This document shows, in pieces, positions 18,568 to 62,015 of a stretch of 64,000 nucleotides of DNA. The first letter of the stretch is position 1. Every line of letters begins with the position of its first letter. Origin of the DNA: Alphaproteobacteria bacterium RIFCSPHIGHO2_01_FULL_41_14 (GTDB lineage Bacteria > Pseudomonadota > Alphaproteobacteria > UBA7879 > UBA5542); NCBI GenBank assembly GCA_001767855.1, contig MEMF01000002.1, positions 168,893 through 232,892 on the forward strand, read 5' to 3'. The translations under genes and the position numbers were made by a program. The notes below the pieces were generated by a model. The model was not told the DNA's origin, searched no databases, and worked only from the letters and a program-made list of their open reading frames with translations.

Positions 18568-21189
18568 TTAAGGGTTCAAGTACCAAGAAAGACCCAGCTT
18601 GAATTCATTATTAATGAGATTAATTTTTTCGGTTACATTGCCATTGCTTTGATCTTTTATTTTCAAGCCAGGTATGTAATCTAAGATGTAATCACTGCGG
18701 AGCGCCAAGTGTCTGGTAATAAAGGTTTCAAGTCCTGCGCCCACCCGTATACCGATTCCGTAAACTTTTTCAGATCCCCCTGCTGTAAAGGAGTGTTGAG
18801 TACCGCTGTGTTGGGAAGAATGAGAAAAACTCCCTCCTATCATGCCTATACGACCATAACCGATAGTCCCGTGGTTGAAAATATACCCAGGGCGCGCTGT
18901 TAGGGCCCATAACCATTGAAGTTTATTCGAGTATGATTCTGTGGTAGTTCCCCCATTGAGAATGGACTCTGAAATGATAGGCTTCGTCAAATCAAGTTGC
19001 AATTCTCCCGCCATAAAAAATTTATCTTGATGGTCGCTATACCCAACAAAGAGACCCCACGCCGGGTCCACTGTTGATCCTTCCCCATCATAGGTAGTGG
19101 TGGCACTAGACCCATTAACCCCCGTTACATTGCGATGATTTACGAAGGTAGAAAGACCACTATCAGCTCCAAAATAGAATCCGGTTCCAACACTTTCTTC
19201 ATAAATGTCTCCCATGGCAGGCCCTGACATGGGATTTAATTTGTATCCTATGCCTAAATTAATTTCATTTAAGAGGGGGCGGTCTTTCTTATAATCTGTA
19301 CCAGATTTATAATAGAAGGGCTGATAAGTCACCTGAGCTCCTTCCACTCGAACGGACAAGCGATCATTTAAAGCAGACTCAAGACCTAAACCATAAAGGA
19401 ATCCTGTTCGATTAGTGCGTTGATAAGAGGTGGGGAAAATAATTTCCCCGGTACCTCCTGAACTACTATAAGAAAAATTAGAGCTGTTAGCGCCAAGGCG
19501 TGCGTATAATAAACTGGATGGGGAGACGTAATATCCAAGACGTCCTATGATTCCCCAAGTGGTTCTTATTTCAGCAGATGAATCTGTGCTTGCTCCAGAA
19601 ACAGTGTAGCTTGTTTTACTGTCAGCCCCATAGATTCCAACATTAAATTCAGCTCCTGCGTAAATTTTGTTAATGTCTATTCCATACCCTGCCAACAAGT
19701 GAATCCCTCCACCAAAGTTGGAAGTGGAAAGATCGTTTGTGAACGTTGAGTAGGTTGAATGAGAAGCTGTTTGCCCTGCTAGCGAGGCAGCTTTAAGACC
19801 AACATAGAATCCGTCCCCAACATTCGTATAAGGAGCAATACCTCCTCGGTAGACAAGGCGGGATACTTCTCCCTCTTCTTTCTCTAAATCATCATAAGAA
19901 AGCTCTGACGCAGAAGCATCAATGAGCCAGGTAGGAGTTTTCTTTTCTTTTTGATTCAGATAAACAACAAACCGACCATTCCCTTTGGTTCCAAAAGATT
20001 TCTTACCAATAACAGAGGTTCCTTTATCAACTTTAAAAATAAGACTCGTATGTTCCGGATCTGTTTGGTCTAGTTTAAATCCTTCTACAAGACCTGCTTT
20101 TTGTTCTGTAACGTTTACGTTATCCCATATCATCTTGGGAAGATGGATGCTGACTTCATTCGTTGTTTTGTTTTCTTGAACATCGAAATTTTTTACCTCA
20201 GTCGTCATGAGGCGAATAATCGTATCGTTATTTTGAACTAAAATATTCATGCTTTTAACAAGGTCATTTTCTGGAAACACAGAAAACGAATCTCCCCGAT
20301 TTAAGAGGGCATTGTTTTGGGTCTTCATAGAGGTATATGTTTCGTTAACTTTGTTCGAATTTGAGATAGTATTGACCGTGGGAACAAAAGATTGATGAGC
20401 CAGATCAATTACTAATTTGGGATCAGGCGTTTTTTCACCGATAATGGATGCTTGAACAATGCGTGTCCCTTTCTGTACAGACACTTCTATGCCCACATCT
20501 TTGTTCATTGTTATCAGTTTATAGCCTTTAAAAAAACCGAAAGATTCAGAAGAAGAGGGGGCCGGCACCCACTGCGTGATTTCTGTGGGAAGAATATAAA
20601 TGGTAGAAAAGTCATCATTTTCTTTGATAATGAATTTTGTTTGGCGACTAAGATCCAGAACAAGTCGTGTGTTTTGATTTTTGAATCCTGCTCGGATCCC
20701 TTTTATGGTCAGAGGTCCATTGACAGGAGCAGGAGATGGATTCATGGGCGCTTCTGCTACAGGATTTTGAGGAATTGGGGCTTCAGGTGGAAGGGGGGGA
20801 TTTTGGGAATCTGGCTGTGCATAAAAAGAAAGACTATATTGATTATGTTGATTTTGCACCAATTTACCTGTCACAAGACGTTTGTCCTTTTTAATGACTA
20901 AATCTCCTGCTCCATCTTGATAGGGTACGTAAGTATAGCTCAACCCAAGGTTTGATTCCTTTGAAAGAGGAGGAGTCCACTGAGTGTCTTCGGGGAATTC
21001 GATGAGAAGAGTTTCATCATCTTCTTGGTCGGGCTCTAGGGAAAAAGCTTCATCAAAGGTAAAAGAAAGGGTGGGGGTCCCTTGGTGGTCAATGATCTTC
21101 ATATCCTGCACAACAAGGGCACATGCTTCTTCTAAATTGGTAAGGAATACCAATAAAAAAGAAAAATATAAAATAGATTTTATTCTCAT
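18568..21189 (-). CDS. large secreted outer-membrane protein: AMIN-like repeat region plus two tandem Omp25/OmpA-like beta-barrel modules
   Basis: Signal peptide (..NLEEACA then LVV) and a Pro-rich linker. There are several repeats of the TRLVLDLS / KLVIDLAH type resembling AMIN domains. The C-terminal half holds two ~215-aa modules, each ending ...LGIGYKLNP and ...LGLSWYLNP, with alternating aromatic beta-strand patterns. Confidence 0.55.
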   Translation of the reverse strand: MRIKSILYFSFLLVFLTNLEEACALVVQDMKIIDHQGTPTLSFTFDEAFSLEPDQEDDETLLIEFPEDTQWTPPLSKESNLGLSYTYVPYQDGAGDLVIKKDKRLVTGKLVQNQHNQYSLSFYAQPDSQNPPLPPEAPIPQNPVAEAPMNPSPAPVNGPLTIKGIRAGFKNQNTRLVLDLSRQTKFIIKENDDFSTIYILPTEITQWVPAPSSSESFGFFKGYKLITMNKDVGIEVSVQKGTRIVQASIIGEKTPDPKLVIDLAHQSFVPTVNTISNSNKVNETYTSMKTQNNALLNRGDSFSVFPENDLVKSMNILVQNNDTIIRLMTTEVKNFDVQENKTTNEVSIHLPKMIWDNVNVTEQKAGLVEGFKLDQTDPEHTSLIFKVDKGTSVIGKKSFGTKGNGRFVVYLNQKEKKTPTWLIDASASELSYDDLEKEEGEVSRLVYRGGIAPYTNVGDGFYVGLKAASLAGQTASHSTYSTFTNDLSTSNFGGGIHLLAGYGIDINKIYAGAEFNVGIYGADSKTSYTVSGASTDSSAEIRTTWGIIGRLGYYVSPSSLLYARLGANSSNFSYSSSGGTGEIIFPTSYQRTNRTGFLYGLGLESALNDRLSVRVEGAQVTYQPFYYKSGTDYKKDRPLLNEINLGIGYKLNPMSGPAMGDIYEESVGTGFYFGADSGLSTFVNHRNVTGVNGSSATTTYDGEGSTVDPAWGLFVGYSDHQDKFFMAGELQLDLTKPIISESILNGGTTTESYSNKLQWLWALTARPGYIFNHGTIGYGRIGMIGGSFSHSSQHSGTQHSFTAGGSEKVYGIGIRVGAGLETFITRHLALRSDYILDYIPGLKIKDQSNGNVTEKINLINNEFKLGLSWYLNP

Positions 21190-21426: not shown

Positions 21427-24147
21427 GTGTCACCATTGCGTCATTCAAATAAAGAAACTTTGTTTCTCATTGATGGATCTGGGTTTATTTTCCGGGCCTA
21501 TCATGCATTGCCTCCTTTGACACGCCCAGATGGAATGCCTGTGGGAGCTGTTCTAGGATTTACCAACATGTTGGTAAAGATTCTAACAGAAATGAACGCG
21601 CCTTATGTGGCGGTTATTTTTGACGCAGGAAGGCGCACATTTCGCAATGAAATCTGCCCAAACTATAAGGCAAACCGTCGCGAAACCCCGGAAGATCTTA
21701 TTCCTCAATTCCCTCTTATTCGTCAGGCATGCACAGCTTTTGGAGTGCCCTTGGTTGAAAAAGAAGGGTTTGAGGCTGATGATATTATAGCGACTTATGC
21801 TGTGGGGGAAAAAGATCGTGACATTATGATCGTATCATCTGATAAAGATTTGATGCAGCTGGTATCAGAGAGGGTAAAGCTCTATGACCCCCTTAAAAAT
21901 AAAATCATTGATCAAGAGGGGGTGCACGAGAAATTTGACGTAGGACCCAAGCAGGTCATAGATGTTCAAGCCCTCGCAGGAGACAGCTCAGATAACATTC
22001 CTGGTGTGCCTGGGATCGGCATTAAGACAGCGTCTTCTTTGATTCAAGAATTTGGCACCCTCGAAAACTTACTTGATAAAGCGCGCACTATTAAACAAGA
22101 AAAGCGCCGAGAAGCCCTGATAAACTTTGCAGATCAGGCGCGTTTGTCAAAACAATTGGTGACGCTACATACAACTGTGCCCGATCTTTTACCTGTCGAC
22201 CGTCTAAAAATAACAGAAATTCATCCAGAAACTGTTCTTCCTTTCCTAGAAGAGCAAGGGTTTCGGAGTTTGAAAAAAAGATTGTTTAACGAAGAGAAAA
22301 TAGAGAAAAAACCACAGGCGCTACAAAAAGCAACACACTCTTACGACCTTATTTTAACCGCTTCTCAACTTGAGGGATGGATCGGCAAGATCAAAGAAGC
22401 AGGGGTTGTTGCCGTTGATACAGAGACTAATTCTTTGGATGCAAAATCTGCTCGTTTAGTGGGTGTTTCATTTGCCATTAGAGCTGGTGTCGCCTGCTAT
22501 ATCCCTGTTTCTTTTAACCCCCCTGTGTCTCTCTTAGATCCACAAATGCTGCACTTAGAGATGGGTCTCAATTTGGTTTTAGAAAAAATATCCCCTCTCC
22601 TAGCTGACCCCAAAATCATTAAAATAGGGCACAACCTGAAATACGATAAATTAGTTTTAAGGCAATACGGTGTAGAGATCATCAATTATGAAGACACCAT
22701 GCTTCTGTCGTACTTACAGCAAGGGGGTAGGCATGGATTGGATTACCTTACAGAGCTTCATTTTGGGCATCGTATGGCTTCCTTCAGTGAGGTCGTGGGT
22801 GTGGGGAGAAAAGCAGTTACCTTTGATCAAGTGCCTTTGGATAAAGCCTTAGATTATGCTGCATCTGACGCAGATTATACCTATCGACTCTATGACCTTC
22901 TGAAACCGCAATTGCGTTCAGAGCATCTAAAAAAACTCTATGAACAGATTGATCTGCCGCTTGTGGATGTCCTGGTGGATATGGAAGATAGGGGAGTGAA
23001 AATCGATCCTTCTGTCTTAAACATTTTGACTCGAGAATTAGATAGACGTCTCAGAGATCTGGAAAGAGAAATTCATCATCTTGCGGGTAAGCAATTTAAT
23101 ATAGCCTCTCCGAAGCAATTAGGGGATATCTTATTTGAAACGCTGCATTTGCCCGGGGGGAAAAAAGGTAAAATGGGGGCTTATATGACAGGCTCCGATA
23201 TTCTAGAGGGTTTAGCAGAACATCATCCTTTACCAGGAAAATTATTAGAATGGCGACAACTTTCAAAACTGAAAAGCACCTATACTGCCACGTTGATAGC
23301 ACAAATTAACCCTAAAACTAAAAGAGTTCATACGTCTTACGCCATGGCTATCACTTCTACGAGTCGTCTTGCGTCTTCGGATCCTAATTTGCAAAATATC
23401 CCCATTCGTACAGAAGAAGGTCGTGAAATTCGAAAGGCGTTTATTGCGAGTGAGGGATGTCGTCTGGTTTCATTTGATTACTCTCAAATCGAGCTTCGAT
23501 TGTTAGCACACATGGCGGATATCACAACGTTGCAACAAGCTTTTATTCAGAACAAGGATATTCATGCCTTAACGGCAAGTCAGGTCTTTGGTGTTCCCTT
23601 GGGACAAGTCTCTTCCGAACTGAGAGGGAGGGCAAAAGCCATCAATTTTGGCATTATCTATGGTATCAGTGCCTTTGGTCTAGCGAAACAATTAAAGATA
23701 GATCGGTCGGAAGCTGCGGCTTATATCCAAGCCTACCACAAACAATATCCGGGCATTAAAGCCTACATGGAACGCACCATTGAATTTGCGCGGGTTCATG
23801 GGTATGTGGAAACTTTGTGGGGACGTCGATGTTTCGTGCCAGATATTAATTCAAAAAACGGAACTTTTCGATCGTTTGCAGAACGTCAAGCTGTTAATGC
23901 CCCGTTACAAGGAAGCAATGCAGACCTTATTAAGAAAGCCATGATAGAGGCTCATATTTTCTTGAAAGGAAAGTATGATACTCGGTTGCTTCTTCAGGTA
24001 CATGATGAGTTGATTTTTGAAGTTCCTCTCTCTGAAATGGAAATAGTAGAAAAAGCCGTAAAAAAAATCATGGAATCTGTTGAGATACTAAAAGTGCCAC
24101 TTACTGTAGGCGTAGGACAGGGAACAACATGGGAAGATGCTCATTAG
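21427..24147 (+). CDS. polA: DNA polymerase I
   Basis: 906 aa with 5'-3' exonuclease, 3'-5' exonuclease and family-A polymerase motifs (DYSQIELR, KAINFGIIYG, QVHDELIFE). GTG start at 21427. Confidence 0.95.
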   Translation: MSPLRHSNKETLFLIDGSGFIFRAYHALPPLTRPDGMPVGAVLGFTNMLVKILTEMNAPYVAVIFDAGRRTFRNEICPNYKANRRETPEDLIPQFPLIRQACTAFGVPLVEKEGFEADDIIATYAVGEKDRDIMIVSSDKDLMQLVSERVKLYDPLKNKIIDQEGVHEKFDVGPKQVIDVQALAGDSSDNIPGVPGIGIKTASSLIQEFGTLENLLDKARTIKQEKRREALINFADQARLSKQLVTLHTTVPDLLPVDRLKITEIHPETVLPFLEEQGFRSLKKRLFNEEKIEKKPQALQKATHSYDLILTASQLEGWIGKIKEAGVVAVDTETNSLDAKSARLVGVSFAIRAGVACYIPVSFNPPVSLLDPQMLHLEMGLNLVLEKISPLLADPKIIKIGHNLKYDKLVLRQYGVEIINYEDTMLLSYLQQGGRHGLDYLTELHFGHRMASFSEVVGVGRKAVTFDQVPLDKALDYAASDADYTYRLYDLLKPQLRSEHLKKLYEQIDLPLVDVLVDMEDRGVKIDPSVLNILTRELDRRLRDLEREIHHLAGKQFNIASPKQLGDILFETLHLPGGKKGKMGAYMTGSDILEGLAEHHPLPGKLLEWRQLSKLKSTYTATLIAQINPKTKRVHTSYAMAITSTSRLASSDPNLQNIPIRTEEGREIRKAFIASEGCRLVSFDYSQIELRLLAHMADITTLQQAFIQNKDIHALTASQVFGVPLGQVSSELRGRAKAINFGIIYGISAFGLAKQLKIDRSEAAAYIQAYHKQYPGIKAYMERTIEFARVHGYVETLWGRRCFVPDINSKNGTFRSFAERQAVNAPLQGSNADLIKKAMIEAHIFLKGKYDTRLLLQVHDELIFEVPLSEMEIVEKAVKKIMESVEILKVPLTVGVGQGTTWEDAH

Positions 24148-24236
24148 ATTTTTCTTGTTTATTTCTACTTGGAGGAGGCTATTCAACGTTCCTGTAATTT
24201 TGTAGGGTGACCCCCAAAGTATAACTTGGGGTGAAC

Positions 24237-26030
24237 ATGAATAAGTGGGCTATTTGGGCGTGTATTGGTCTTAGTGCATGTAATTTGGATCAAAAAAAGT
24301 TTCAAGATCCGATCATCGATCGAGCCCACGAAAGTATAAAAACAGCCTTACTCGAACCGACCAATGAAAGACCCCCACAATTAGCTACTGCTCCTTCTTC
24401 TTCAGCAGCGGCTCTGTTGCCAAAAATCCTACAACAAAAAGTTACCATTGAATTGAATGAGTCTAAGGATATTAAAGAAGTTTTTATGGATCTTTGTCGT
24501 GCTGCTAAAATTAATGTAGTGGTAGAAAAGGAAATAGAGGGATCCATTTTTTATCATGCAAAATCTCGTCCTCTGATCGAAGTAGTACAGTCTATTTGCG
24601 AAATCCTTAATTTACGCTTTCGGTATGAGAAAAATTTACTATATATAGAACGAGATGTTCCCTACTTAAAAACATATGATGTTCAGTTTTTGAACATGAG
24701 TCGGGAAACAAAAAACAATGTTTCTATTACCAATAATATTTTGTCTAAATCTTCCACCACGGGGGTGGGGGCAAATGGATCCACCACAGAAATTTCTAGT
24801 CGGGCGGAGAATGATTTTTGGGAAGAGTTAAAACATATTTTGAGGAATCTTTTACAGGTTCCAAAAACCCAATTACTAGACGAAGATTCTGAAAAAATAG
24901 AAGAAAAAAAGATTCTGCCTTTGCAGGGGCAACTTAAGGATTCCCAGACACAAAATGTCCGTGTTCACGAGAAGAAAAAGATCAAACAAAAAGGCCGACC
25001 TTCCTTTGCGATTCATCGTCAAACGGGCCTCATTACTATTTACGGAACTCAAAAAAATCATCATGTCGTAGAACAATTTTTGACCAAGCTAAAAAAGCAA
25101 ATGGGAAGGCAGATTTTGATTGAGGCAAAGATATTAGAGGTGACTTTAAAGGAGGAGTATAAAAGCGGAATTGATTGGCAACGGATTGGGGAATATGGGC
25201 TAGGTAACTATGCGGAAGCCAGTAAAACAAGATTTCAAGGAGACCTCAGTGCCTCTGCTTTGTTTGGTGCCATTGCGCAGAAAACGCCTACAGTGATCAC
25301 AACTCCCGAAACGTCTCAGGTGATTAGTCTGGGGGGTAGGGGGCATTCTTTGTCCGCCATTCTAAATTTTATGGAAACGTTTGGGGTCGTACGTACTCTG
25401 TCTAGCCCGAGACTTACGGTGTTGAATAATCAAACAGCCCTTTTAAAAGTGGCTGAAAATTTCGTGTTTTTTAATGTAACGGGAGAGCGTCAATTTCTAA
25501 ACTCAGACTCTACCAATTATGGTTCTTTGGTGTCCGCCAACAGTTCTCCCCAAACCATTCCCATCGGATTTGTGATGAGTGTCCAACCAGCCATTGATGT
25601 AGAGACACAAGATATTATTATTAATTTAAGGCCAACAATTACACGGTTAATCGATACAAAACAAGATCCAGCCGTTGTGTTGTTAAACCAGTCCCTACAA
25701 AATCCCTCTCATCACGTTAAATCTGAATTCCCCGTCATCGCCGTGCGTGAGATGGATTCTATTTTGAGGATCAAATCAGGCACCGTTGCTATTTTAGGGG
25801 GCTTAATGATCGAGGGGGCAGAGACTGGTCGTGCAGGAATTCCTGGCACGAGTGAAGGGCCTTTTAGTTTTTTTACCTCTGCCAAGCGCCAAGCAAAAGC
25901 AGTCACAGAGCTCGTCATCTTTTTGCGGGCAACAATTTTGGAAGGCGCTCATCCTGATTCCAAAGATCAGCAACTCTATAGGGAGTTTTCTCTAGATTCT
26001 CGTCATTTAAATTGGAAAGAAGCCGCATGA
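24237..26030 (+). CDS. lipoprotein secretin (GspD/PilQ/MshL/BfpB-type outer-membrane channel)
   Basis: Lipobox LSAC. A secretin-domain start (ILIEAKILEVTLKEEYKSGIDW) and secretin C-terminal motifs (GTVAILGGLM...GIPGT...FSFF...ELVIFLRATIL). The RBS GGGGTG precedes ATG 24237, and an alternative GTG lies at 24231. Confidence 0.8.
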   Translation: MNKWAIWACIGLSACNLDQKKFQDPIIDRAHESIKTALLEPTNERPPQLATAPSSSAAALLPKILQQKVTIELNESKDIKEVFMDLCRAAKINVVVEKEIEGSIFYHAKSRPLIEVVQSICEILNLRFRYEKNLLYIERDVPYLKTYDVQFLNMSRETKNNVSITNNILSKSSTTGVGANGSTTEISSRAENDFWEELKHILRNLLQVPKTQLLDEDSEKIEEKKILPLQGQLKDSQTQNVRVHEKKKIKQKGRPSFAIHRQTGLITIYGTQKNHHVVEQFLTKLKKQMGRQILIEAKILEVTLKEEYKSGIDWQRIGEYGLGNYAEASKTRFQGDLSASALFGAIAQKTPTVITTPETSQVISLGGRGHSLSAILNFMETFGVVRTLSSPRLTVLNNQTALLKVAENFVFFNVTGERQFLNSDSTNYGSLVSANSSPQTIPIGFVMSVQPAIDVETQDIIINLRPTITRLIDTKQDPAVVLLNQSLQNPSHHVKSEFPVIAVREMDSILRIKSGTVAILGGLMIEGAETGRAGIPGTSEGPFSFFTSAKRQAKAVTELVIFLRATILEGAHPDSKDQQLYREFSLDSRHLNWKEAA

Positions 26031-26719
26031 AAAAATTAAAAGCTTTTCTGAAAAAGGAGGAGGGGTTCAGTCTTATTGAGATTGCCATTGCTCTTATTGT
26101 GCTGGGGCTCGTTATCGGGGGCGTTTTGAAAGGAAAAGAGCTCATCGAAAATGCAAAATTAAATGTGGTGGCTCGTAATATTGATATGTATCGAATGGCG
26201 ATCCATCTGTTTGTCGATACATATGGTTCTTTACCTGGAGATTTTCATTTAGCATCCGCTCATATTCATCCCAAACTTCGGGATGGACAAAACGATGGTG
26301 TTATTAGTGGTCATGGGTTGAATCCTTTGGATGAAGCGGCGAATGTCTGGACCCATCTAGCCCAAGCTGGGCTGATTGGAGATGTGGGTCAGTTTCCAAG
26401 TTATGAATACGCGAAGGGGGGACAGGGTGTGCCTCAAGAAAAAATTGGGGGAGTGATCACGCTTCAGCATGACCCCCATCCCGACATGTCGGGACACTGG
26501 CTTCTTTTGGGACGCGAGAATGGGTCGAAGGGAGATGGAGCTTTATTGACACCCCAGCAAGCCAGAACATTAGCACAAAAAATGGATAGCGCCGATCCGA
26601 ATTCCGGTCGAGTACGGGGGTATCATGGCGTGAATGTGTCACCAGAAGATTGTATTAAAGAAGGGAAATTTAATAGTGCCAATACCCAGCCAGCCTGTAT
26701 TTTATACTTTCAACTTTAA
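26027..26719 (+). CDS. prepilin-type N-terminal cleavage/methylation domain protein (large pilin/pseudopilin, 230 aa)
   Basis: Class III signal MKKLKAFLKKEEG|FSLIEIAIALIVLGLV, with G at -1, F at +1 and E at +5. Its ATG overlaps the secretin TGA in an ATGA junction. Confidence 0.7.
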   Translation: MKKLKAFLKKEEGFSLIEIAIALIVLGLVIGGVLKGKELIENAKLNVVARNIDMYRMAIHLFVDTYGSLPGDFHLASAHIHPKLRDGQNDGVISGHGLNPLDEAANVWTHLAQAGLIGDVGQFPSYEYAKGGQGVPQEKIGGVITLQHDPHPDMSGHWLLLGRENGSKGDGALLTPQQARTLAQKMDSADPNSGRVRGYHGVNVSPEDCIKEGKFNSANTQPACILYFQL

Positions 26720-26724
26720 GTCTT

Positions 26725-27525
26725 ATGAAACAATTTTTTCGTGACGTTAAAAACGAAGAAGGATTTGCCCTGGTAGAAGTGGCCATTGCCTTAATCGTGA
26801 TGGGAGTTTTATTAGGAATAGGGCTTCCTTCTTTTTTGCAGTATCTTCAATGGCAGAAGATTAGAGACACAAAAGAAAAGCAAGAAAAAATTTTCTATAG
26901 TGTGGCCAGTTTCGTTCTCCAAAATGGGTTTGTGCCTTTACCGGCAGACCCTTATGAAAAAGGAGAAAATTTTGGGATGTCGAGACCCTCTGCCCAAAAG
27001 TCTGAAGATTTGAGAGGTCTTATTCCCTTTAAAACTTTGGGACTCCCTGAAGAGTGTGCTCGTGATGGGTTTAAACACTACTTTACGTACATTGGGGGGG
27101 CGCCCCAAAAAGAACAGATAGATGTGTCAAATCAAGCTTCTTTTTGCCAAGTCTTCCCCATCCATTCTTTGGAGGTGGACGAGCGACGCCCCAATGGGGG
27201 ATTTTCGAAGAGACCACAAAATCTGGCATCTCAAAATCCCATAGTTCTGATCATCATCAGTCATGGGGAAAGTGGGCACGGGGCCTATTACGGTGTTGCG
27301 GGAAGTATGAAACAAATCTCAAGATTAGATCAAGCGGGCGCAGACAAACGGCATAACGCATCATCAAGCTTAAGAATTATTAGTCGCGCTTTGTCTCGAA
27401 AGCCTCAAGACTTTTTTGATGACATGGTTGTGTGGGTAACCCGCGACAACTTAATGGCCTTTTATGGGAAGTCCCCTTGTCAGGTCTATGAGAAACCAAC
27501 AGAGTATGGACATGTCTTTATTTGA
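26725..27525 (+). CDS. prepilin-type N-terminal cleavage/methylation domain protein (large pilin/pseudopilin, 266 aa)
   Basis: Class III signal MKQFFRDVKNEEG|FALVEVAIALIVMGVLLG. It starts 5 nt after the first pilin. Confidence 0.7.
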   Translation: MKQFFRDVKNEEGFALVEVAIALIVMGVLLGIGLPSFLQYLQWQKIRDTKEKQEKIFYSVASFVLQNGFVPLPADPYEKGENFGMSRPSAQKSEDLRGLIPFKTLGLPEECARDGFKHYFTYIGGAPQKEQIDVSNQASFCQVFPIHSLEVDERRPNGGFSKRPQNLASQNPIVLIIISHGESGHGAYYGVAGSMKQISRLDQAGADKRHNASSSLRIISRALSRKPQDFFDDMVVWVTRDNLMAFYGKSPCQVYEKPTEYGHVFI

Positions 27526-27721
27526 AGGGGGAAATCGTTTACCTTTTTGGATCTATGTTCTAGCAGCGGGCGTACTTTGGGTTTTGGTGTGGGGCTTAGG
27601 CATGGAAAAGATGCCTGTTTTAGAGTCTGATTTTATAGTTGAGGATATGCCACCCTTATCTCTGTCCGATCTTCATTCGCCTCCTCGAGAGACATACTTT
27701 ACGATTGAGCGCGCAAGCTAG
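27512..27721 (+). CDS. possible small single-TM protein overlapping the pilin2 stop (weak)
   Basis: ATG 27512, read out of frame with pilin2, gives a 69-aa product with one hydrophobic helix (FWIYVLAAGVLWVLVWGLG). It overlaps the 3' end of the convergent rpe by 22 nt. There is no RBS and no homology signal. Confidence 0.2.
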   Translation: MSLFEGGNRLPFWIYVLAAGVLWVLVWGLGMEKMPVLESDFIVEDMPPLSLSDLHSPPRETYFTIERAS

Positions 27722-28358
27722 AAATAGCTCGTGTATAGTCCTTAGCTTTGAAGATACTGGTGCCGGCGACTAAAATAGTCGCTCCTTTTTGTACCAGCAT
27801 TGCTGCGTTTTCCTTCGACACGCCCCCATCCACCGAAATCTGGAACGAAAAACCGTGTTTCTGTTTTTGGCCGTATAACCATTCTATTTTTTCCATCTGA
27901 TCTGCGATGAATGTTTGACCTCCAAACCCGGGGTATACCGTCATGACCAGAACGAGATCTATGGAAGCCAAATAAGGCTGAAGGGTAGTGATGGGCGTAT
28001 GGGGATTTAAAGAAAGCCCCGCTTTTTTCCCAAGATTTTTAATTTCTTTTAAGGCTTCCTGTGCGGCGGGTGTTTCTATATGGACAGTTAAATAATCAGC
28101 TCCTGCATCGGCAAAGGAGCGCACAAATTTTTCTGGGTTCGTGACCATTAAATGAACATCGAAAGGGAGAGGGGTATGGGGACGGATCGATCGAACTAAA
28201 TCCGGGCCAAATGTCAAATTGGGCACAAAATGACCATCCATAACATCAAGATGCACAAGATCTGCGCCAGCCGCTGTAATAGCCTTTAGTTCTTGGGCAA
28301 GACAACTAAAATCTGCAGATAAAAGAGAAGGAGCAATTTGGGGGTTACACGGCATCAT
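27699..28358 (-). CDS. rpe: ribulose-phosphate 3-epimerase
   Basis: Carries rpe motifs (SLLSADF, HLDVMDGHFVPNLTFG, DGG). Confidence 0.9.
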   Translation of the reverse strand: MMPCNPQIAPSLLSADFSCLAQELKAITAAGADLVHLDVMDGHFVPNLTFGPDLVRSIRPHTPLPFDVHLMVTNPEKFVRSFADAGADYLTVHIETPAAQEALKEIKNLGKKAGLSLNPHTPITTLQPYLASIDLVLVMTVYPGFGGQTFIADQMEKIEWLYGQKQKHGFSFQISVDGGVSKENAAMLVQKGATILVAGTSIFKAKDYTRAISSLRAQS

Positions 28359-28429: not shown

Positions 28430-28506
28430 GGCGGAGTAGCTCAGTCGGTTAGAGCAGTGGAATCATAATCCATTTGTCGGGGGTTCGAATCCCTCCTCCG
28501 CTACCA
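28430..28506 (+). tRNA. tRNA-Met: tRNA with anticodon CAU (elongator Met, or Ile2 if lysidinylated), encoded CCA
   Basis: Cloverleaf: acceptor GGCGGAG/CTCCGCT, D-arm TAGCTCAGTCGGTTAGAGC, anticodon loop ATCATAA, T-arm GGTTCGAATCC, 3' ACCA. It lacks the initiator features (no GGG/CCC anticodon stem, and position 1 pairs with 72). Confidence 0.85.
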
Positions 28507-28601
28507 TCTTTCGTATTATACTGATCTTCTCAATAAAACCTACGGAAAAAATGTTGCCCTCTCTTAGGAATGCGTATTTAATTAGAGGGGAGAGGTTATC
28601 A

Positions 28602-29558
28602 ATGGAAACGTGGATTATCACAGACGGGAAAGTCGGTACGGAAAAACAATGTCTCGCGCTCGCAGAACTTTTGGGAGTCAAAGCAAAGGTTAAAAGAATA
28701 TCGGCGCGATTCCCCTGGTCTGTTCTTCCTCCTGTTTTATGGCTCAATTCCTTAGAAGCGTTGGATGTACAATCAAAAGAACAACTTGTTGAACCCTGGC
28801 CAGATCTTGTGATCGGAGCCAGTCGACTGGCGGCCGCCCCCGTTGCCTTTTTGAAGAAAAAACTGGGCAAAAAAATGACGACCATTTTTCTGCAAAATCC
28901 TCATCTTAATTTAAATGCGTTTGATGTGGTGATTGCGCCTCAGCATGATGGACTGTCTGGAAAAAACTTAATTACTATCCAGGGAGCTTTACACAATGTA
29001 ACGCCATCTCTTTTAAAAAAAGAAGGTATCAAATGGGCTCGTATTCTTCCAAAAGATTTCCCCAGACCTTGGGTGACAATATTGCTGGGAGGAAATAGTC
29101 GGCATCACACAATGGATCTGGATACCATGGAGTACTACGGGTCAGAATTGCGGCATCTGGTCCAGAGAAACCCCATGAGTTTTCTTATTACGGCATCGAG
29201 ACGTACCCCGCCGGAAGCGGTGCAGGCCTTTAAAACCGCTCTCGGCGATTCACATGTGTTTTTATGGAATGGATTAGGTGACAATCCTTATTATGGGTTT
29301 CTTGCCTTGGGGGATTTTATTTTGGTAACGAATGATTCCGTTTCCATGTTGTCAGAGGCAGCATCTGTAGGTAAGCCCCTGTATACCCTAAACTTAGAGG
29401 GAGGCAGCCGTCGATTGGACAAGTTTCAGGAAGACTTGATGGCTCAGGGGATCTGTCGTCCCTTTGAAGGAGAGCTGGAAACCTGGGACACAAAACCAGT
29501 GGATGCGCAAGCAACTCTTCTTCAACAACTGAAAAAAAAGATAAAAGTCTTGACTTAA
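28602..29558 (+). CDS. ELM1/DUF1022-family protein (predicted nucleotide-sugar-dependent glycosyltransferase-like)
   Basis: METWIITDGKVGTEKQCLALAELLG... is typical of the alphaproteobacterial mitochondrial-fission-ELM1-like family. A GGAG RBS lies upstream. The track's 28551 start is an over-extension. Confidence 0.6.
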   Translation: METWIITDGKVGTEKQCLALAELLGVKAKVKRISARFPWSVLPPVLWLNSLEALDVQSKEQLVEPWPDLVIGASRLAAAPVAFLKKKLGKKMTTIFLQNPHLNLNAFDVVIAPQHDGLSGKNLITIQGALHNVTPSLLKKEGIKWARILPKDFPRPWVTILLGGNSRHHTMDLDTMEYYGSELRHLVQRNPMSFLITASRRTPPEAVQAFKTALGDSHVFLWNGLGDNPYYGFLALGDFILVTNDSVSMLSEAASVGKPLYTLNLEGGSRRLDKFQEDLMAQGICRPFEGELETWDTKPVDAQATLLQQLKKKIKVLT

Positions 29559-29613: not shown

Positions 29614-30708
29614 ATGTGTATGCCCTTGAATGTTGAGCAATTCTCTGTTTTGCGTCTTATCCGTACTCACCACATTGGTCCTCAGACTCTTTGGAAGCTG
29701 ATGGCACAGTTCCACTCAGCTGCCTCGATTGTGGAAAATTGGCCAGAGATTCAGGCCAATATGAAACGCAAAATAGACTTAGTTTCAGAAAAAATCGTTA
29801 TCACTGAAATAGAAAAAACTTTCAAAAGTGAGGCTCGGTTTTTATTTCATTCTGACCCTTCTTACCCTGCGTCTTTACACAGCGTGGCTGACCGACCCCC
29901 TGTTTTAAGTTTCAAAGGGACCCTCGCTTTATTGGCTCAAAAAAAAGTAGCCATCGTGGGGGCACGAAATGCGTCGTCCCACGGATGTCGGTTGGCCTAT
30001 CTGATGGCAAAAGAGTTGGGCAGGTTTGGGTGGCGTACGGTCTCTGGGTTGGCCCGGGGGATTGATGCGGCGGCTCATCAAGGAAGTTTGGAAAGCGGAA
30101 CGATTGCTGTTCTTGGGAATGGGATACAAACTATTTATCCCGAGGAAAACAAAAAATTATATGAAGAGATTACAGAAAAAGGGCTTTTATTAAGCGAATT
30201 TTCTTTTGATACACAGCCCCACATGGGGAATTTTCCCAAAAGGAATAGATTGATATCTGCTCTTGTTCAGGGCATCGTTGTGGTGGAAGCAGCCCATCAA
30301 TCGGGATCTTTGTTAACAGCACAATATGGGTTAGAAATGGGAAAGGATATTTTCGCCGTGCCTGGTTCACCCATGGATCCTCGGTGTTGCGGATCCAACC
30401 GTCTGATTAAACAGGGGGCCGTTTTGACCGAGTCGGCGCAGGATGTTTTAGAGATTCTTGATCAAGGGCAATGGGTTCCCCATTATAAAGAAAATAGAGA
30501 GAAGAAAAAAAAGATTTTGGCGTCAGAGAAGAAAAATGAGTCTTCCATTTTAGATTTTTTAAGCACAGTTCCCCTCTCTGTGGATGAGTTAGCCGATTTA
30601 ACGCAGTTGCGCATGGATCAACTTTCTTCTCTCTTAACGGACTTAGAGCTTGAGGGGCAAATTATGAAACATCCTGGCAATAAAGTATCTCGTGTCTTGC
30701 AGGGTTAG
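29614..30708 (+). CDS. dprA: DNA processing protein DprA (Smf)
   Basis: Rossmann core (VAIVGARNASSHG...SGLARGIDAAAHQG...GTIAVLGNGI) and a C-terminal winged-helix region. It is upstream of topA, a common arrangement. Confidence 0.85.
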   Translation: MCMPLNVEQFSVLRLIRTHHIGPQTLWKLMAQFHSAASIVENWPEIQANMKRKIDLVSEKIVITEIEKTFKSEARFLFHSDPSYPASLHSVADRPPVLSFKGTLALLAQKKVAIVGARNASSHGCRLAYLMAKELGRFGWRTVSGLARGIDAAAHQGSLESGTIAVLGNGIQTIYPEENKKLYEEITEKGLLLSEFSFDTQPHMGNFPKRNRLISALVQGIVVVEAAHQSGSLLTAQYGLEMGKDIFAVPGSPMDPRCCGSNRLIKQGAVLTESAQDVLEILDQGQWVPHYKENREKKKKILASEKKNESSILDFLSTVPLSVDELADLTQLRMDQLSSLLTDLELEGQIMKHPGNKVSRVLQG

Positions 30709-52010: not shown

Positions 52011-52076
52011 CCTTAGTCGTTGCTCCCCCCTTTTTTTTTGAGTACACTCTTTTAAGAGGAGTTGGCAACAGGGGGT
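51988..52076. repeat. leader repeat copy A (about 90 bp, shared with 53848-53931)
   Basis: Runs ggtggccc..ttgacctta..gctcccccc-T9-GAGTACACTCTTttAAGAGGAGTTGGCAACAGGGGGT-ATG. It contains the palindrome CTCTT..AAGAG and a C6T9 homopolymer junction, and overlaps the last 23 nt of tsaD. Confidence 0.7.
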
Positions 52077-52925
52077 ATGACAAAAGTTTTTCGATTTTTT
52101 CCCAGGTTTTTTGTCCCAATTTTTTTTCTTTCCGTGGTTTTTTCAAACACTAGTTTTCCCACCACGTATCATATCCAAAAGATTAAAGAGAGAGGCTATC
52201 TGATTGTGGCCATGATTGATCAGGATGATTCCCCTTATGCTATGAAAGATCTTAAAGGTCAAGCTGTTGGCATTGATATTGGTTTGGCCAAAGATATTGC
52301 CAAGGATCTCGGGGTAGAATTGCAAATTCTAAGGTCTGCAGCAACCCATGATGAGGTTGTCGAGCAGGTTTTTCAGGGAAAAGCGGACATAGGGATTTCA
52401 GAGTTAAGTATCACCTTAGCGCGGGCAGAAAAGATTAATTACTCTAATCCTTACGTTTTGGTAAAAAAAGCGGTTCTTCTCAATCGTGGGCATTTTTTTC
52501 ATTTAAGGAAAAACGCAGAGGAAAGCCTTCTCTCATTTTTGACAGGTGACCATAAGCTTGGCGTCAGAAAGGGCAGTTCATATGTTGGGTTTGCTAAATT
52601 TCAATTTCCTCAAGCAAAAATCGCGGAATATCCAACCAAAAGAGATTTGATGGATGCATTGGACAAAGGGCTTATTGCTGGGGTTCTTTGGGATGAGTTT
52701 GAGTTAGAAAGTGCGCTGCTGTCACTCAGGGAGGGGCCTCTACGGTATATCGCTGTTGTGATGGATATTCCTCCAGATCAAGTGGCAATGATCTTACCAA
52801 AAGATGATCTGAATTTTTTGCGATGGATAAATGCCTTTTTAGAATTAAATAGAGAAACCCTCTACATAAATGATTTGTTGAAAATGTATTTTACTCACTT
52901 AAAACAAATAAAAGTGGATGTCTAG
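52077..52925 (+). CDS. periplasmic solute-binding protein, SBP_bac_3 family (paralogue 1)
   Basis: Signal peptide followed by RGYLIVAMI..GIDIGLAKDIAKDLGVELQI...VEQVFQGKADIGIS, the type II SBP fold. Preferred start is MTKVF at 52077. Confidence 0.7.
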   Translation: MTKVFRFFPRFFVPIFFLSVVFSNTSFPTTYHIQKIKERGYLIVAMIDQDDSPYAMKDLKGQAVGIDIGLAKDIAKDLGVELQILRSAATHDEVVEQVFQGKADIGISELSITLARAEKINYSNPYVLVKKAVLLNRGHFFHLRKNAEESLLSFLTGDHKLGVRKGSSYVGFAKFQFPQAKIAEYPTKRDLMDALDKGLIAGVLWDEFELESALLSLREGPLRYIAVVMDIPPDQVAMILPKDDLNFLRWINAFLELNRETLYINDLLKMYFTHLKQIKVDV

Positions 52926-53786
52926 ATGACAAAAAATTTTAGATTCTTTTCTCAATTTTTCGTCCTGGTTCTCTTTCTGTTGGGGGGGGTTCCACTTTTC
53001 AGTTTTTCAAAGACACACTCTGTCCAACCCGTTCCGGATTCTATCCAAAAGATTAAAGACAGAGGGTATCTGATCGTCTCCATGATCAGAGAAGACGATC
53101 CCCCTTATGTGATGAAGAACCCTCAAGGACAGATGATCGGTATTGATATCAGTCTAGCGCAGGATATCGCGAAAAACATGGGGGTAGACTTGAAAATCTT
53201 AAGAACGGCGACAACCTATGATGACGTTGTTGAGCAGGTTTTTCAAGGAAAAGCAGACATAGGCATTTCAAATCTCAGCATTACCCTGGGGCGCGCAGAA
53301 AAGGTTAATTATTCAAGTCCTTATGTGTCATTAAAAAAAACAATTCTTCTCAATCGTGGGCATTTTTTTCGCACAAGGCAAAGAGAAAATGATAGCCTCG
53401 AGTCATTTTTTCAAAAAGGTCATAAGCTTGGGGTGATGAAGGGGAGCTCCTATGTGGAATTTTCCAAGATGTATTTCCCAAAGGCGGAAATCGCAGAATA
53501 CCCAACGAAAGAGGATTTGCTCCACGCTCTGGATACCCAACAAATTGCAGGGGTTTTTTGGGATGAATTCGAGATGGAAAAGGTGATTTTCTTAAGCCCA
53601 GGAGGTCCTATACGATATTTTGTCGTTAAGATGAATGTTCCCTCAGATAAATCGGCAATGGTTTTGCCAAAACAAGATCTAGATTTTTTGCAGTGGGTTG
53701 ATACTTTTTTAGAATTGAGCAGAAGAACTTTTAAAATACAGGATGTATTAAACATGTATATGGCCCACTTAAGAGAAAAAAAGTAA
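52926..53786 (+). CDS. periplasmic solute-binding protein, SBP_bac_3 family (paralogue 2)
   Basis: About 65-70% identical to paralogues 1 and 3. Its ATG directly abuts the TAG of paralogue 1. Confidence 0.7.
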   Translation: MTKNFRFFSQFFVLVLFLLGGVPLFSFSKTHSVQPVPDSIQKIKDRGYLIVSMIREDDPPYVMKNPQGQMIGIDISLAQDIAKNMGVDLKILRTATTYDDVVEQVFQGKADIGISNLSITLGRAEKVNYSSPYVSLKKTILLNRGHFFRTRQRENDSLESFFQKGHKLGVMKGSSYVEFSKMYFPKAEIAEYPTKEDLLHALDTQQIAGVFWDEFEMEKVIFLSPGGPIRYFVVKMNVPSDKSAMVLPKQDLDFLQWVDTFLELSRRTFKIQDVLNMYMAHLREKK

Positions 53787-53847
53787 AATCCCAAAGGTCA
53801 GGTTGGTTTTGAGTGGGAACTCGGCCATTATTTGAGAAAGTTGTTCT

Positions 53848-53931
53848 GGCGGCCCTGGTCCTGCTGACCTTAATCATTGCTCCTCCCTTTTTTTTTGAGT
53901 ACACTCTTAAGAGGGATTGGCAACAGGGGAT
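53848..53931. repeat. leader repeat copy B
   Basis: Runs ggcggccc..ctgacctta..gctcctccc-T10-GAGTACACTCTTAAGAGGGATTGGCAACAGGGGAT-ATG. The palindrome CTCTTAAGAG is perfect here. Confidence 0.7.
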
Positions 53932-54768
53932 ATGACAAAAAGTTTTCATTTTTTTTCTAGGTTGTTTATCTTTACGCTTTTTCTTTCCGTGGTTTTTTCA
54001 AACACTAGTTTTCCCACCACGAATTATATTCAAAAGATTAAAGACAGAGGGTATCTCATTGTGGCTATGATTGGGCATGATGCTCCTCCCTATGAGATGA
54101 AGAATTCCCAAGGTCAAGCTATTGGCATTGATGTGAGCTTAGCCAAAGATATCGCCAAGGACCTTGGGGTAGAATTACAAATTCTAAGAACGGCAACAAC
54201 TTATGATGAAGTTGTTGAGCAAGTTTTCCAGGGAAAAGCAGACTTAGGAATATCGAATCTCAGCATTACCTTGGGGCGTGCAGAAAAGGTTAATTATTCA
54301 AGTCCTTATGTGTCGTTAAAAAAAACGGTCCTTCTGAATCGTGCCAATTTTTTTCGCACAAGGCAAAGACAAGATGATAGCCTCGAGTCTTTTTTTCGAA
54401 ATGGTCATAAGCTTGGGGTGATGAAGGGGACTTCCTATGTTGAGTTTGCGAGACTTCAATTTCCCCAGGCAGAAATCGTGGAATATTCAAACGAGGATGA
54501 GTTGATTAAAGCGTTGGCTGTTCGCCAGATTGCGGGGATTTTTTGGGATGAATTTGAGTTGGAGCGAATACTTATTTTGTATAAAGAGGGGCCCATACGA
54601 TATATCGCTGTTGTGATGGATGTTTCTTCAGATAAAGCGGGCATCGCTGTACCAAAAGGAGATCTGAATTTTTTGAGATGGATTAATACTTTTTTACAGC
54701 TAAACAGAAAACCTCTTGAAATATCTGATTTGTTAAAAATACATCTGTCCAATTTGAATAAAAAATAG
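53932..54768 (+). CDS. periplasmic solute-binding protein, SBP_bac_3 family (paralogue 3)
   Basis: The N-terminus (FLSVVFSNTSFPTT) matches paralogue 1. The central part (GRAEKVNYSSPYVSLKKT, FFRTRQR..DSLESFF..GHKLGVMKG) matches paralogue 2, so the gene is mosaic. Confidence 0.7.
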   Translation: MTKSFHFFSRLFIFTLFLSVVFSNTSFPTTNYIQKIKDRGYLIVAMIGHDAPPYEMKNSQGQAIGIDVSLAKDIAKDLGVELQILRTATTYDEVVEQVFQGKADLGISNLSITLGRAEKVNYSSPYVSLKKTVLLNRANFFRTRQRQDDSLESFFRNGHKLGVMKGTSYVEFARLQFPQAEIVEYSNEDELIKALAVRQIAGIFWDEFELERILILYKEGPIRYIAVVMDVSSDKAGIAVPKGDLNFLRWINTFLQLNRKPLEISDLLKIHLSNLNKK

Positions 54769-57276: not shown

Positions 57277-57843
57277 TTAGTCTTCAATCACAACAATGGT
57301 ACGTCCGCGTCCCCTTTTACTGGAGGCAGGCTTCTTTGACTTAGAACTCTGACTCCCTTCGGGAGAAAGATCAGGCACAATACGAGAACGTCCCTTCGAA
57401 CCCATCATCACAAGAACTCTTTGTCCGACGGAAAGCTGAGAATCCTTTCCTTGCACGATGGTCAGGATGCGACCATCTCTGAGCTCTACGGAATATTCAA
57501 TACCATCTTGGGATTTTAATCCCTTTTCTAGTAACGAACCCCCAACTGCACCGGCAGCAGCACCCAGAACGGCCCCAACAACGTGTCCACTTCCATGGCC
57601 TACTTGAGACCCTAGAAGTCCACCCGCGAGTCCTCCGCCCAACAACCCTACTTTGTTGTCTTCCAGGCTATCCCCCCCTTGCACTTTAACGGCGCGGGAA
57701 GAGATAATGACACCCTTGTATGTATGTTTAACAGAACCAACATCATCCTCAGAATATTCATTGGAAGAGATGTTTTTGGCACAGTTGCTTAATAAGAGAA
57801 GAGCAGAGAGACTGAATACAATTAGTTTTTTCATTTTTTCCAT
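57277..57843 (-). CDS. glycine-zipper outer-membrane lipoprotein (SlyB / Rickettsia 17-kDa-antigen-like)
   Basis: Signal peptide with a lipobox-like LLSNC. Gly-zipper segment GLLGGGLAGGLLGSQVGHGSGHVVGAVLGAAAGAVGGSLL. Lys/Arg/Ser-rich C-terminus. Confidence 0.55.
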   Translation of the reverse strand: MEKMKKLIVFSLSALLLLSNCAKNISSNEYSEDDVGSVKHTYKGVIISSRAVKVQGGDSLEDNKVGLLGGGLAGGLLGSQVGHGSGHVVGAVLGAAAGAVGGSLLEKGLKSQDGIEYSVELRDGRILTIVQGKDSQLSVGQRVLVMMGSKGRSRIVPDLSPEGSQSSKSKKPASSKRGRGRTIVVIED

Positions 57844-57949
57844 CGTATATTAAAAAATAATAATCGCATATTTCCATAAATAGTCAATAGTTTCTCGTTG
57901 TAAAAAAAGAAGAAAATATCTTATGATAAAGAAAGCAGGGAAGGTCATA

Positions 57950-61706: not shown

Positions 61707-62015
61707 TTAATTTATGCGTGCGTTCAGTTTGGTGGCGATCGAGCAAAGAGATGTCTCTGGCTGATGTGCAGTCGCATATAAAATCCGTTTTACACCCTGA
61801 TAGAGACAACGGAGACCTTGTCCTGGGGTTGCACATTCAACCGTCAAAGAGGTGTGGGGATAGAAGGCCAACTGGTCTTGATAGGCTTTGACAATGCCTG
61901 CACCCAATACAGATAGGGTAGAACTCGAGATAAAAAACTGAATGGGGTCTGAAGTTGTGAGGTAGGGCACCATTTCTTCCCAACAGGTGACAATAACCTT
62001 CTTATCCGCAGACAT
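61707..62015 (-). CDS. hypothetical 102-aa protein translationally coupled to dnaA
   Basis: Its ATG shares one nucleotide with the dnaA TGA (TGATG). It has no recognisable motif, and a competing + strand ORF (61679-61891) overlaps it. Confidence 0.3.
   Translation of the reverse strand: MSADKKVIVTCWEEMVPYLTTSDPIQFFISSSTLSVLGAGIVKAYQDQLAFYPHTSLTVECATPGQGLRCLYQGVKRILYATAHQPETSLCSIATKLNARIN

Follow-up and report, generated by a model that had tools for sequence, protein, structure and literature searches.

The DNA analyzed here, a stretch of 64,000 nt from Alphaproteobacteria bacterium RIFCSPHIGHO2_01_FULL_41_14 (hereafter the window), carries a block of genes for a lipoprotein secretin and two prepilins, followed by a small membrane protein. 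Positions are those of the window unless a locus number (L followed by three digits) is given. The genes of the block are the following.

24237 (ATG) to 26030, + strand: lipoprotein secretin, MshL-like, 597 amino acids (aa); an alternative upstream GTG at 24231 gives 599 aa
26027 to 26719, + strand: pilin 1, a prepilin of 230 aa
26725 to 27525, + strand: pilin 2, a prepilin of 266 aa
27512 to 27721, + strand: small single-pass membrane open reading frame (ORF), 69 aa

As read from the sequence, the secretin and pilin 1 genes share an ATGA overlap (26027 to 26030), and a 5-nt spacer (26720 to 26724) separates the two pilin genes. The ATG of the small ORF at 27512 gives a 14-nt overlap with pilin 2, and its 3' end overlaps the convergent rpe gene by 23 nt. 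Public gene calls start the secretin at ATG 24237 (597 aa), and an exact look-up of the GTG-start form found no match. A promoter and terminator scan gave no signal beyond the shuffled background. In profile searches, no ORF of the window carried a T2SSE, T2SSF, Peptidase_A24 or PilMNOP domain. A first-pass annotation of the window had reported a secretin, two prepilins, an LSAC lipobox, 13-residue leaders ending in EEG, the gene junctions and the absence of motor genes from the 64 kb. All of these held up: the secretin through Pfam Secretin and Secretin_N_2 matches, the prepilins through their leaders, Phe+1 and Glu+5 residues and N_methyl and family-profile matches, and the rest as described.

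The secretin belongs to the Secretin superfamily (PF00263, E=2.4e-16, 60.2 bits against a cut-off of 27.5, residues 381 to 570) and also carries Secretin_N_2 (E=3.4e-5). Its best NCBIfam model is that of MshL (TIGR02519) with 190 bits, under the equivalog cut-off of 250.2; the other models scored 83 bits for GspD (cut-off 351), 61 for PilQ (cut-off 284), 52.6 for the PilN-type secretin of type IVb pili (cut-off 288) and 45 for SctC of the type III secretion system. Family profiles matched the solved chains of GspD, PilQ and BfpB. Single secretin and pilin 1 sequences run against the PDB with phmmer gave no match; matches came from the family profiles alone. By its sequence the secretin is of the self-piloting lipoprotein type, like MshL, BfpB, TcpC and HxcQ, with a signal peptide that ends in the lipobox Cys (LSAC, residues 12 to 15 of the 597-aa form), and lipidation is predicted. 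Of 43 family members, 31 have a lipobox, and homologs of the secretin number in the hundreds.

Both prepilins carry a class III signal, which reads EEG/F(S/A)L(I/V)E before a hydrophobic stretch, with cleavage predicted at the slash. The 13-aa leader is MKKLKAFLKKEEG in pilin 1 and MKQFFRDVKNEEG in pilin 2, each followed by Phe at +1 and Glu at +5. Pilin 1, which has a C-terminal Cys pair and a mature length of 217 aa, passed the N_methyl cut-off of 21.2 with 23.5 bits, while pilin 2 at 19.8 bits fell 1.4 below it. Family profiles matched solved type IV pilins at E=3e-4 for pilin 1 and at E=2e-8 over the N-terminal helix for pilin 2. Against GspG (TIGR01710, cut-off 88.85), pilin 1 reached 15.9 bits and pilin 2 reached 20.9 bits, in the N-terminal helix only. 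The structural model of pilin 1 is confident and its modeled fold is type IVb-like, with the type IVb pilins CofA, TcpA and PilS as best structural neighbors. It is the probable major pilin. A distant pilin 1 homolog, P0154 (210 aa; L017 10001 to 13246), adjoins a sigma-54 activator and a histidine kinase in a pilA-pilS/pilR-like arrangement. It was dropped as evidence on the present system, since it is not linked to a secretin and sits by a sigma-54 two-component pair.

Pilin 2 is, by analogy, the probable minor or initiator pilin. Its AlphaFold model, built on a 20-sequence alignment, gave no usable structure, with a predicted local distance difference test (pLDDT) score of 41. A HMMER scan recovered 1,988 representatives of 50%-identity clusters at E<=1e-10, mostly at full length, so the family is not restricted to this clade. 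Residues S179, H180, G181, G184, G186 and N211 are near-invariant, as is an FDD..W.TR.NL motif, and the head domain of about 190 aa carries the conserved signature SHG..G.G...N...FDD..W.TR.NL. The head matched nothing among solved structures or curated families. Because the family profiles align with known pilins over the N-terminal helix alone, we regard the head domain as uncharacterized.

The 69-aa ORF, annotated as a gene on every public contig, had no Pfam or NCBIfam match. Membrane proteins with a transmembrane (TM) segment occupy the same position in relatives, with 158 aa in L019, 115 aa in L011, 311 aa including tetratricopeptide repeats (TPR) in L014 and 190 aa of TPR-like sequence in L021. 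In the close relative whose secretin is 81% identical, the protein is 76 aa long with a TM segment, at 32% identity. The 69-aa ORF is thus probably a shortened form of a bitopic TM(+TPR) fourth gene. It probably belongs to the module, as the first-pass annotation had tentatively proposed.

The relatives were drawn from a genome scan with one genome per Genome Taxonomy Database (GTDB) species, and 80 loci were among the matches listed; the counts are samples, not censuses. Secretin-family carriers among the matches listed include Holospora undulata, H. curviuscula, Ca. Finniella, Ca. Paracaedibacter symbiosus, Ca. Odyssella, Micavibrio, Rhodospirillum and many alphaproteobacterial metagenome-assembled genomes (MAGs). 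The window sequences themselves were matched exactly in groundwater metagenomes and in the MAGs RIFCSPHIGHO2_01_FULL_41_14, RIFCSPLOWO2_01_FULL_45_8, GWB1_45_5 and GWA1_45_9. Arrangements were scored by running hidden Markov models of the window pilin families over the listed loci, as follows.

Secretin with pilin 1 and pilin 2: 26 of 80 listed loci, Micavibrio included
Secretin with pilin 1: 10 of 80 listed loci
Secretin alone: 43 of 80 listed loci

The three-gene block therefore recurs in relatives, a point that the first-pass annotation had left to be checked. It has other neighborhoods in L011 (51% secretin identity) and L014 (39%), and we take it to be a unit in itself, with the position between polA, rpe and dprA incidental. 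Two variant arrangements were seen in the wider secretin family. At L018 (7476 to 11563), in an alphaproteobacterial MAG, a lone MshL-like secretin lies opposite a Tad-type secretin (T2SS-T3SS_pil_N plus Secretin) and a TPR protein, so that two secretin systems stand side by side. In L081, L083, L087, L093 and L095, two tandem ATPases of PilT/PilU size (about 380 to 400 aa) lie about 2.3 to 2.5 kb upstream of the secretin, and pilin 1 lies about 1.7 to 2.9 kb downstream of it and is not adjacent. Some members of the secretin family may therefore have retraction motors.

The location of the motor genes became apparent from relatives with a single operon. In L039, L049 (Micavibrio), L052, L060 and L077 they lie directly 3' of pilin 2, in the order secretin, pilin 1, pilin 2, ATPase of about 580 to 600 aa, membrane protein of about 405 aa, protein of about 500 aa and protein of about 200 aa. 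Single operons of this kind occur in the Micavibrio and Rhodospirillaceae relatives, and the operon is broken up in Holosporales-type genomes. Pfam identified the ATPase as T2SSE plus MshEN and the membrane protein of about 405 aa as a T2SSF platform. In L021 and L022, whose secretins are 42 to 44% identical, the motor block is encoded on the other strand, about 5 kb downstream, an intermediate stage of operon splitting. Within the clade of at least 50% secretin identity (L011, L019 and the window), no motor was found within 10 kb. An aligned 108-residue ATPase segment containing the family-specific Walker B and His boxes was then used as a probe against the Joint Genome Institute (JGI) metagenome collection. 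Among the matches listed, the top metagenome match was the 111-kb contig Ga0209542_10000362 (L099), which comes from the same sample as the window contig Ga0209542_10000038. It carries the following genes (locus 2), flanked by ftsH, glmM, trcR and greA.

L099 8411 to 8878: Peptidase_A24 protein, 155 aa (E=8e-10)
L099 8921 to 10654: ATPase with T2SSE and MshEN, 577 aa (T2SSE E=2e-112)
L099 10651 to 11823: T2SSF platform protein, 390 aa (E=4e-37)
L099 11807 to 12640: membrane-anchored accessory protein, 277 aa, no family match
L099 12499 to 12885: single-TM accessory ORF, 128 aa, no family match

No secretin or pilin gene was found on the L099 contig. The peptidase shows both catalytic Asp motifs (YQDIRYGRIPN and GAGDLK) and consists of the A24 domain alone, with no methyltransferase domain, so the Phe+1 pilins are probably not N-methylated. 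In its 155-aa, A24-only form it resembles Tad-type peptidases. The ATPase scored 402 bits against PilB (cut-off 676) and 396 against GspE (cut-off 630), and the platform matched GspF best (190 bits, cut-off 424). The 277-aa protein has weak homology to a protein of about 476 aa in L021. The Micavibrio ATPase (L049 13294 to 15048) passes the model of the MshE-type cyclic di-GMP (c-di-GMP) motif with 56.8 bits against a cut-off of 38. The ATPase of the present organism does not, and the N-terminal motif is degenerate both there and in L021. This suggests, from the motif sequences, that c-di-GMP control may have been lost in the symbiont-type lineage.

Exact-sequence look-ups of the proteins of both loci in MAG assemblies placed the two loci in the same genome.

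A2621 assembly: A2621_04700 (ATPase) and A2621_04690 (accessory) from the motor locus, with A2621_00950 (secretin) and A2621_00955 (pilin 1) from the window
A2065 assembly: A2065_00085 from the motor locus, with A2065_01200 from the window
A2977 assembly: A2977_03030 (platform) from the motor locus, with A2977_03305 (pilin 2) from the window
HCI assembly (a third-party annotation, or TPA, MAG): HCI48278 and HCI48279 from the motor locus, with HCI48617 and HCI48616 from the window

A contig of 985,649 bp likewise carries proteins of both loci. The GC content differs between the window (42%) and locus 2 (46%) and could have pointed to different organisms. Exact-sequence membership in the same assemblies overrules that explanation, and the difference is therefore variation within one genome.

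A complete type IV filament core, consisting of a secretin, two prepilins, an A24 peptidase, one assembly ATPase and a platform, is thus present in one genome at two loci. Since both loci occur in the same assemblies, the system is split rather than orphaned, and the split arrangement is operon fragmentation in a Holosporales-type lineage rather than motor loss. The first-pass annotation had offered several possibilities here. Its suggestion of a dispersed system was borne out, while its description of the block as an orphan, or as a system whose motor had been replaced, has to be given up in view of a peptidase-ATPase-platform cluster of the same system family in the same genome. Nor was an ordinary complete pilus or secretion locus found elsewhere, of which the window genes would be relocated parts, a counterpossibility that it had raised: locus 2 has no secretin or pilins and is the complementary half.

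We consider it quite probable that the three genes of the block, probably joined by the small fourth ORF, supply the outer-membrane part and the filament of a type IV filament machine encoded at two loci. Its working can be sketched from what is established for such filaments. Locus 1, the window block, would provide a self-piloting MshL-type secretin, a type IVb-like major pilin, a larger priming or capping pilin 2 and a small bitopic membrane protein. Locus 2 would provide a short A24 peptidase, one ATPase of the MshE/PilB/GspE type, a platform of the PilC/GspF type and two small membrane accessory proteins. The peptidase would cut both 13-residue leaders after Gly-1 (Gly13), probably with no N-methylation. 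The ATPase and platform would draw pilin 1 out of the inner membrane and add it to a pilin 2-containing primer, and the fibre would leave the cell through the lipoprotein secretin.

In type IVb pili, a single minor pilin initiates assembly and triggers retraction. With one major and one bulky minor pilin, a single ATPase and a secretin of the lipoprotein type, the present system follows the type IVb pattern and looks more like a pilus than like a classical type II secretion system (T2SS). We tentatively favor a pilus by which the cell touches host or prey cells or adheres to them, which fits the range of carriers: symbionts living inside protists, an epibiotic predator and relatives that live free. 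Several points weigh against this picture. The function proposed for the split system is read from its genes, and the role of pilin 2 is an analogy, since its structural model fell short at the low pLDDT given above. Pilin 1 is unusually conserved for a surface major pilin, which would also fit a periplasmic secretion pseudopilus. The two loci lie on separate contigs in most assemblies. The searches covered the window and locus 2, and a retraction ATPase, more pilins, a full-length PilD or a second system may exist elsewhere in the genome.

Comparison with known systems helped to place the machine. The mannose-sensitive hemagglutinin (MSHA, or MSH) pilus of Vibrio, built from MshL, MshE, MshG and MshA, is close in several respects: MshL is by far the best model for the secretin, Secretin_N_2 and a lipobox are present in it, MshEN is present in the ATPase, and the Micavibrio ATPase retains the MshE-type c-di-GMP motif. 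Genes like those for the L, E, G and A components are all present. In contrast, the secretin stays under the MshL equivalog cut-off, no homologs of MshM, MshN or MshI-K are found in either locus, and there are two pilins rather than five or more. An MshM-like AAA protein was likewise not seen in the window, locus 2 or the single-operon relatives. Whereas the prepilin peptidase adjoins the ATPase here and the genes occupy two loci, MSH systems are almost always encoded at a single locus, without a peptidase, and both they and type IVb pili occur almost only outside the Alphaproteobacteria (Denise et al. 2019, PMC6668835). MSH has been described in Gammaproteobacteria and a few other groups, unlike the alphaproteobacterial carriers reported here. 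In the scheme of Denise et al. 2019, the present system would probably be classed as a "generic" type IV filament (TFF).

Type IVb pilins are characterized by a leader of 15 to 30 aa, a variable non-Phe residue at +1, a mature protein of about 190 aa and an alpha-beta-roll fold. The system resembles the type IVb pili (the toxin-coregulated pilus TCP, colonization factor antigen CFA/III, the bundle-forming pilus BFP and the R64 thin pilus) in the structural neighbors and large mature size of pilin 1, in a lipoprotein secretin comparable to BfpB, TcpC and PilN, in having one major and one larger second pilin, and in a single ATPase with no PilT in the loci examined. It differs in that the leader has 13 aa, the +1 position has Phe, a residue shared with type IVa pilins and T2SS pseudopilins, and not Met, Leu or Ser, and the PilN-type secretin model falls far below its cut-off. 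Similarity of pilin 2 to TcpB or CofB is not detectable past the N-terminal helix, and no secreted partner like TcpF or CofJ was identified.

The likeness to the T2SS lies in the same four-part core of secretin, pilin, ATPase and platform, with an ATPase and platform whose scores for GspE and GspF come close to those for PilB and PilC. Chlamydial and mitochondrial T2SS are likewise minimal, without recognizable GspC, GspL or GspM (PMC6668835, PMC8134430). However, every Gsp equivalog cut-off is missed by a wide margin, the pilins exceed GspG in size by a factor of 1.5 to 2, the pilin fold is nearer the type IVb pilins, and the secretin is an MshL-type lipoprotein. A classical T2SS is not indicated, as GspC, GspL, GspM and GspH-K were not detected in the window, locus 2 or the single-operon relatives. 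The marks of a type IVa pilus are a PilQ secretin with AMIN domains, the PilMNOP alignment complex, a PilT retraction ATPase and a bifunctional PilD. The genes do not make up such a pilus either: neither locus has PilMNOP or PilT, the PilQ and PilB scores stand at 61 against 284 and 402 against 676, and the peptidase is of the A24-only form. The system would work like a minimal type IVb or MSH pilus, yet on sequence scores the cut-offs for MshL, PilQ, GspD, PilB, GspE, GspF and GspG are all missed.

A bolder and rather doubtful proposal is that these genes define a distinct alphaproteobacterial subtype of type IV filament that current schemes leave as generic, with the pilin 2 head as a tip module having a specific binding or enzymatic activity, and that Holosporales symbionts and Micavibrio-type predators use it as their main organelle of contact with host or prey. 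The marks of such a subtype would be an MshL-like lipoprotein secretin, a major pilin of type IVb fold, the pilin 2 head signature, a single MshE-like ATPase and a methyltransferase-less peptidase. If true, such minimal alphaproteobacterial systems might, speculatively, bear on the bacterial source of the mitochondrial T2SS-like apparatus.

Selection on the block was assessed against the 81% relative, which is fully syntenic with the window. Synonymous sites are saturated (proportion of synonymous differences, pS, 0.70 to 0.79), while the proportion of nonsynonymous differences (pN) is 0.064 for pilin 1, 0.113 for the secretin and 0.138 for pilin 2, compared with 0.146 for polA, 0.152 for rpe and 0.164 for dprA; for the 69-aa ORF it is 0.41. 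The low pN of the secretin and pilins therefore indicates strong constraint and no decay.

The strength of that constraint bears on the main competitor of a contact pilus, a T2SS-like secretion machine in which a short periplasmic pseudopilus would push folded effectors or hydrolases through the secretin, as in the reduced chlamydial T2SS, which has neither minor pseudopilins nor GspL/M. Secretion pseudopilins are typically conserved while surface pilins are usually variable, and pilin 1 is highly conserved, with 87% identity, the lowest pN of the block and residues that are invariant across the family. The ATPase is nearly equidistant from GspE and PilB, the platform is best matched by GspF, 53 of 78 pilin 2 family members show a weak GspG match over the N-terminus, and one ATPase with no PilT was found in the loci examined. 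Predators and intracellular symbionts would also need secreted effectors. Even so, we judge a secretion machine unlikely, since the GspG, GspH and GspD scores lie far under their cut-offs (GspG 15.9 against 88.85; GspD 83 against 351), the window and locus 2 have no GspC, GspL, GspM or GspH-K, and the nearest relative of the secretin, MshL, serves a pilus.

A competence pilus for DNA uptake, as the first-pass annotation had suggested from the nearby dprA, has to be judged from the surroundings of the block, which are as follows.

21427 to 24147, + strand: polA (ORF map), directly 5' of the block
27699 to 28358, - strand: rpe, convergent (ORF map)
28430 to 28506: tRNA-Met, 3' of rpe
28551 to 29558, + strand: Mito_fiss_Elm1-family gene (E=2.4e-86), between tRNA-Met and dprA, kept in the syntenic relative
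29614 to 30708: dprA (ORF map); topA also lies 3' of the block

The dprA gene does lie close by, 2 kb downstream, and many diderm bacteria take up DNA by means of type IV filaments that have a secretin. However, the convergent rpe, the tRNA and the Elm1-like gene intervene between the block and dprA, and neither the window nor locus 2 has comEA or comEC. To our knowledge, dprA is near-universal in bacteria, including non-competent ones. We rejected the linkage as meaningful, since the block has other neighbors and no DprA within 10 kb in L011 and L014, and a role in competence is thus highly improbable. Least credible of all is a decaying remnant of the ancestral operon in a reduced genome: it could draw on the "incomplete" type IV pili scored in Holosporales by TXSScan surveys (PMC9992710), the 43 listed loci with the secretin alone, the reduction of the fourth gene to 69 aa in the window and the c-di-GMP motif detectable in Micavibrio and not here, but every ORF is intact, pN matches the low level of housekeeping genes although synonymous sites have reached saturation, Gly-1, Phe+1, Glu+5 and the lipobox are conserved, and the same genome holds an intact peptidase, with both Asp motifs readable, an intact ATPase and an intact platform.

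The two-locus filament machine offers an explanation for that survey result. Most Holosporales are reported to have "incomplete Type IV pili" in the TXSScan survey (PMC9992710), besides which nothing relevant was found in the literature on pili of Paracaedibacter or Holosporales. The TPA assembly of the present organism bears the NCBI name "Holosporales bacterium", and the secretin family occurs in Holospora, Ca. Finniella, Ca. Paracaedibacter and Ca. Odyssella, so that taxon and phenomenon agree. The survey summarizes presence and absence and does not go into the conserved block of secretin and two pilins, a second locus or a single operon as the ancestral state, whereas here the core set is complete once both loci are counted. 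Very likely the survey's incomplete pili are this system, scored as incomplete because it is divergent and fragmented. The apparent oddity of a secretin and pilins without a motor would then be an ordinary outcome of operon fragmentation. "Incomplete" Holosporales pili can be complete when unlinked loci are counted, and the host-interaction repertoire of these symbionts would have to be re-read.

What the analysis adds is an alphaproteobacterial filament system that is conserved and not yet classified, together with a large family of pilins whose head domain is uncharacterized. The conserved set (secretin, pilin 1, pilin 2, ATPase, platform and two or three proteins without an assigned role) spans protist symbionts, epibiotic predators and free-living Rhodospirillaceae, and is widespread in Alphaproteobacteria and so far uncharacterized. 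Since Rhodospirillum and Micavibrio are culturable carriers, the system and the function of the pilin 2 head are directly testable.

Other features of the window were recorded in passing. Directly upstream of polA, on the opposite strand (18568 to 21189, - strand), lies a gene whose 873-aa product combines OMP_b-brl domains with a Pro-rich linker and may be a large surface or outer-membrane antigen; its position is kept in the 81% relative (864 aa). Three tandem SBP_bac_3 periplasmic solute-binding paralogs, followed by a sodium:dicarboxylate symporter and a major facilitator superfamily (MFS) transporter, occupy 52062 to 54768 (+ strand), and a lipoprotein like the Rickettsia 17-kDa antigen is encoded at 57277 to 57843. 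A patatin-like phospholipase (57923 to 59443, + strand; E=2.6e-21) adjoins a 714-aa coiled-coil protein with no real family match (59498 to 61642, - strand), and the two are candidate host-interaction effectors in this Holosporales-type genome. Near the end of the window lies dnaA (62015 to 63379, - strand). The cumulative GC skew climbs over most of the window and flattens at about 42 to 46 kb, and the replication origin may be near.

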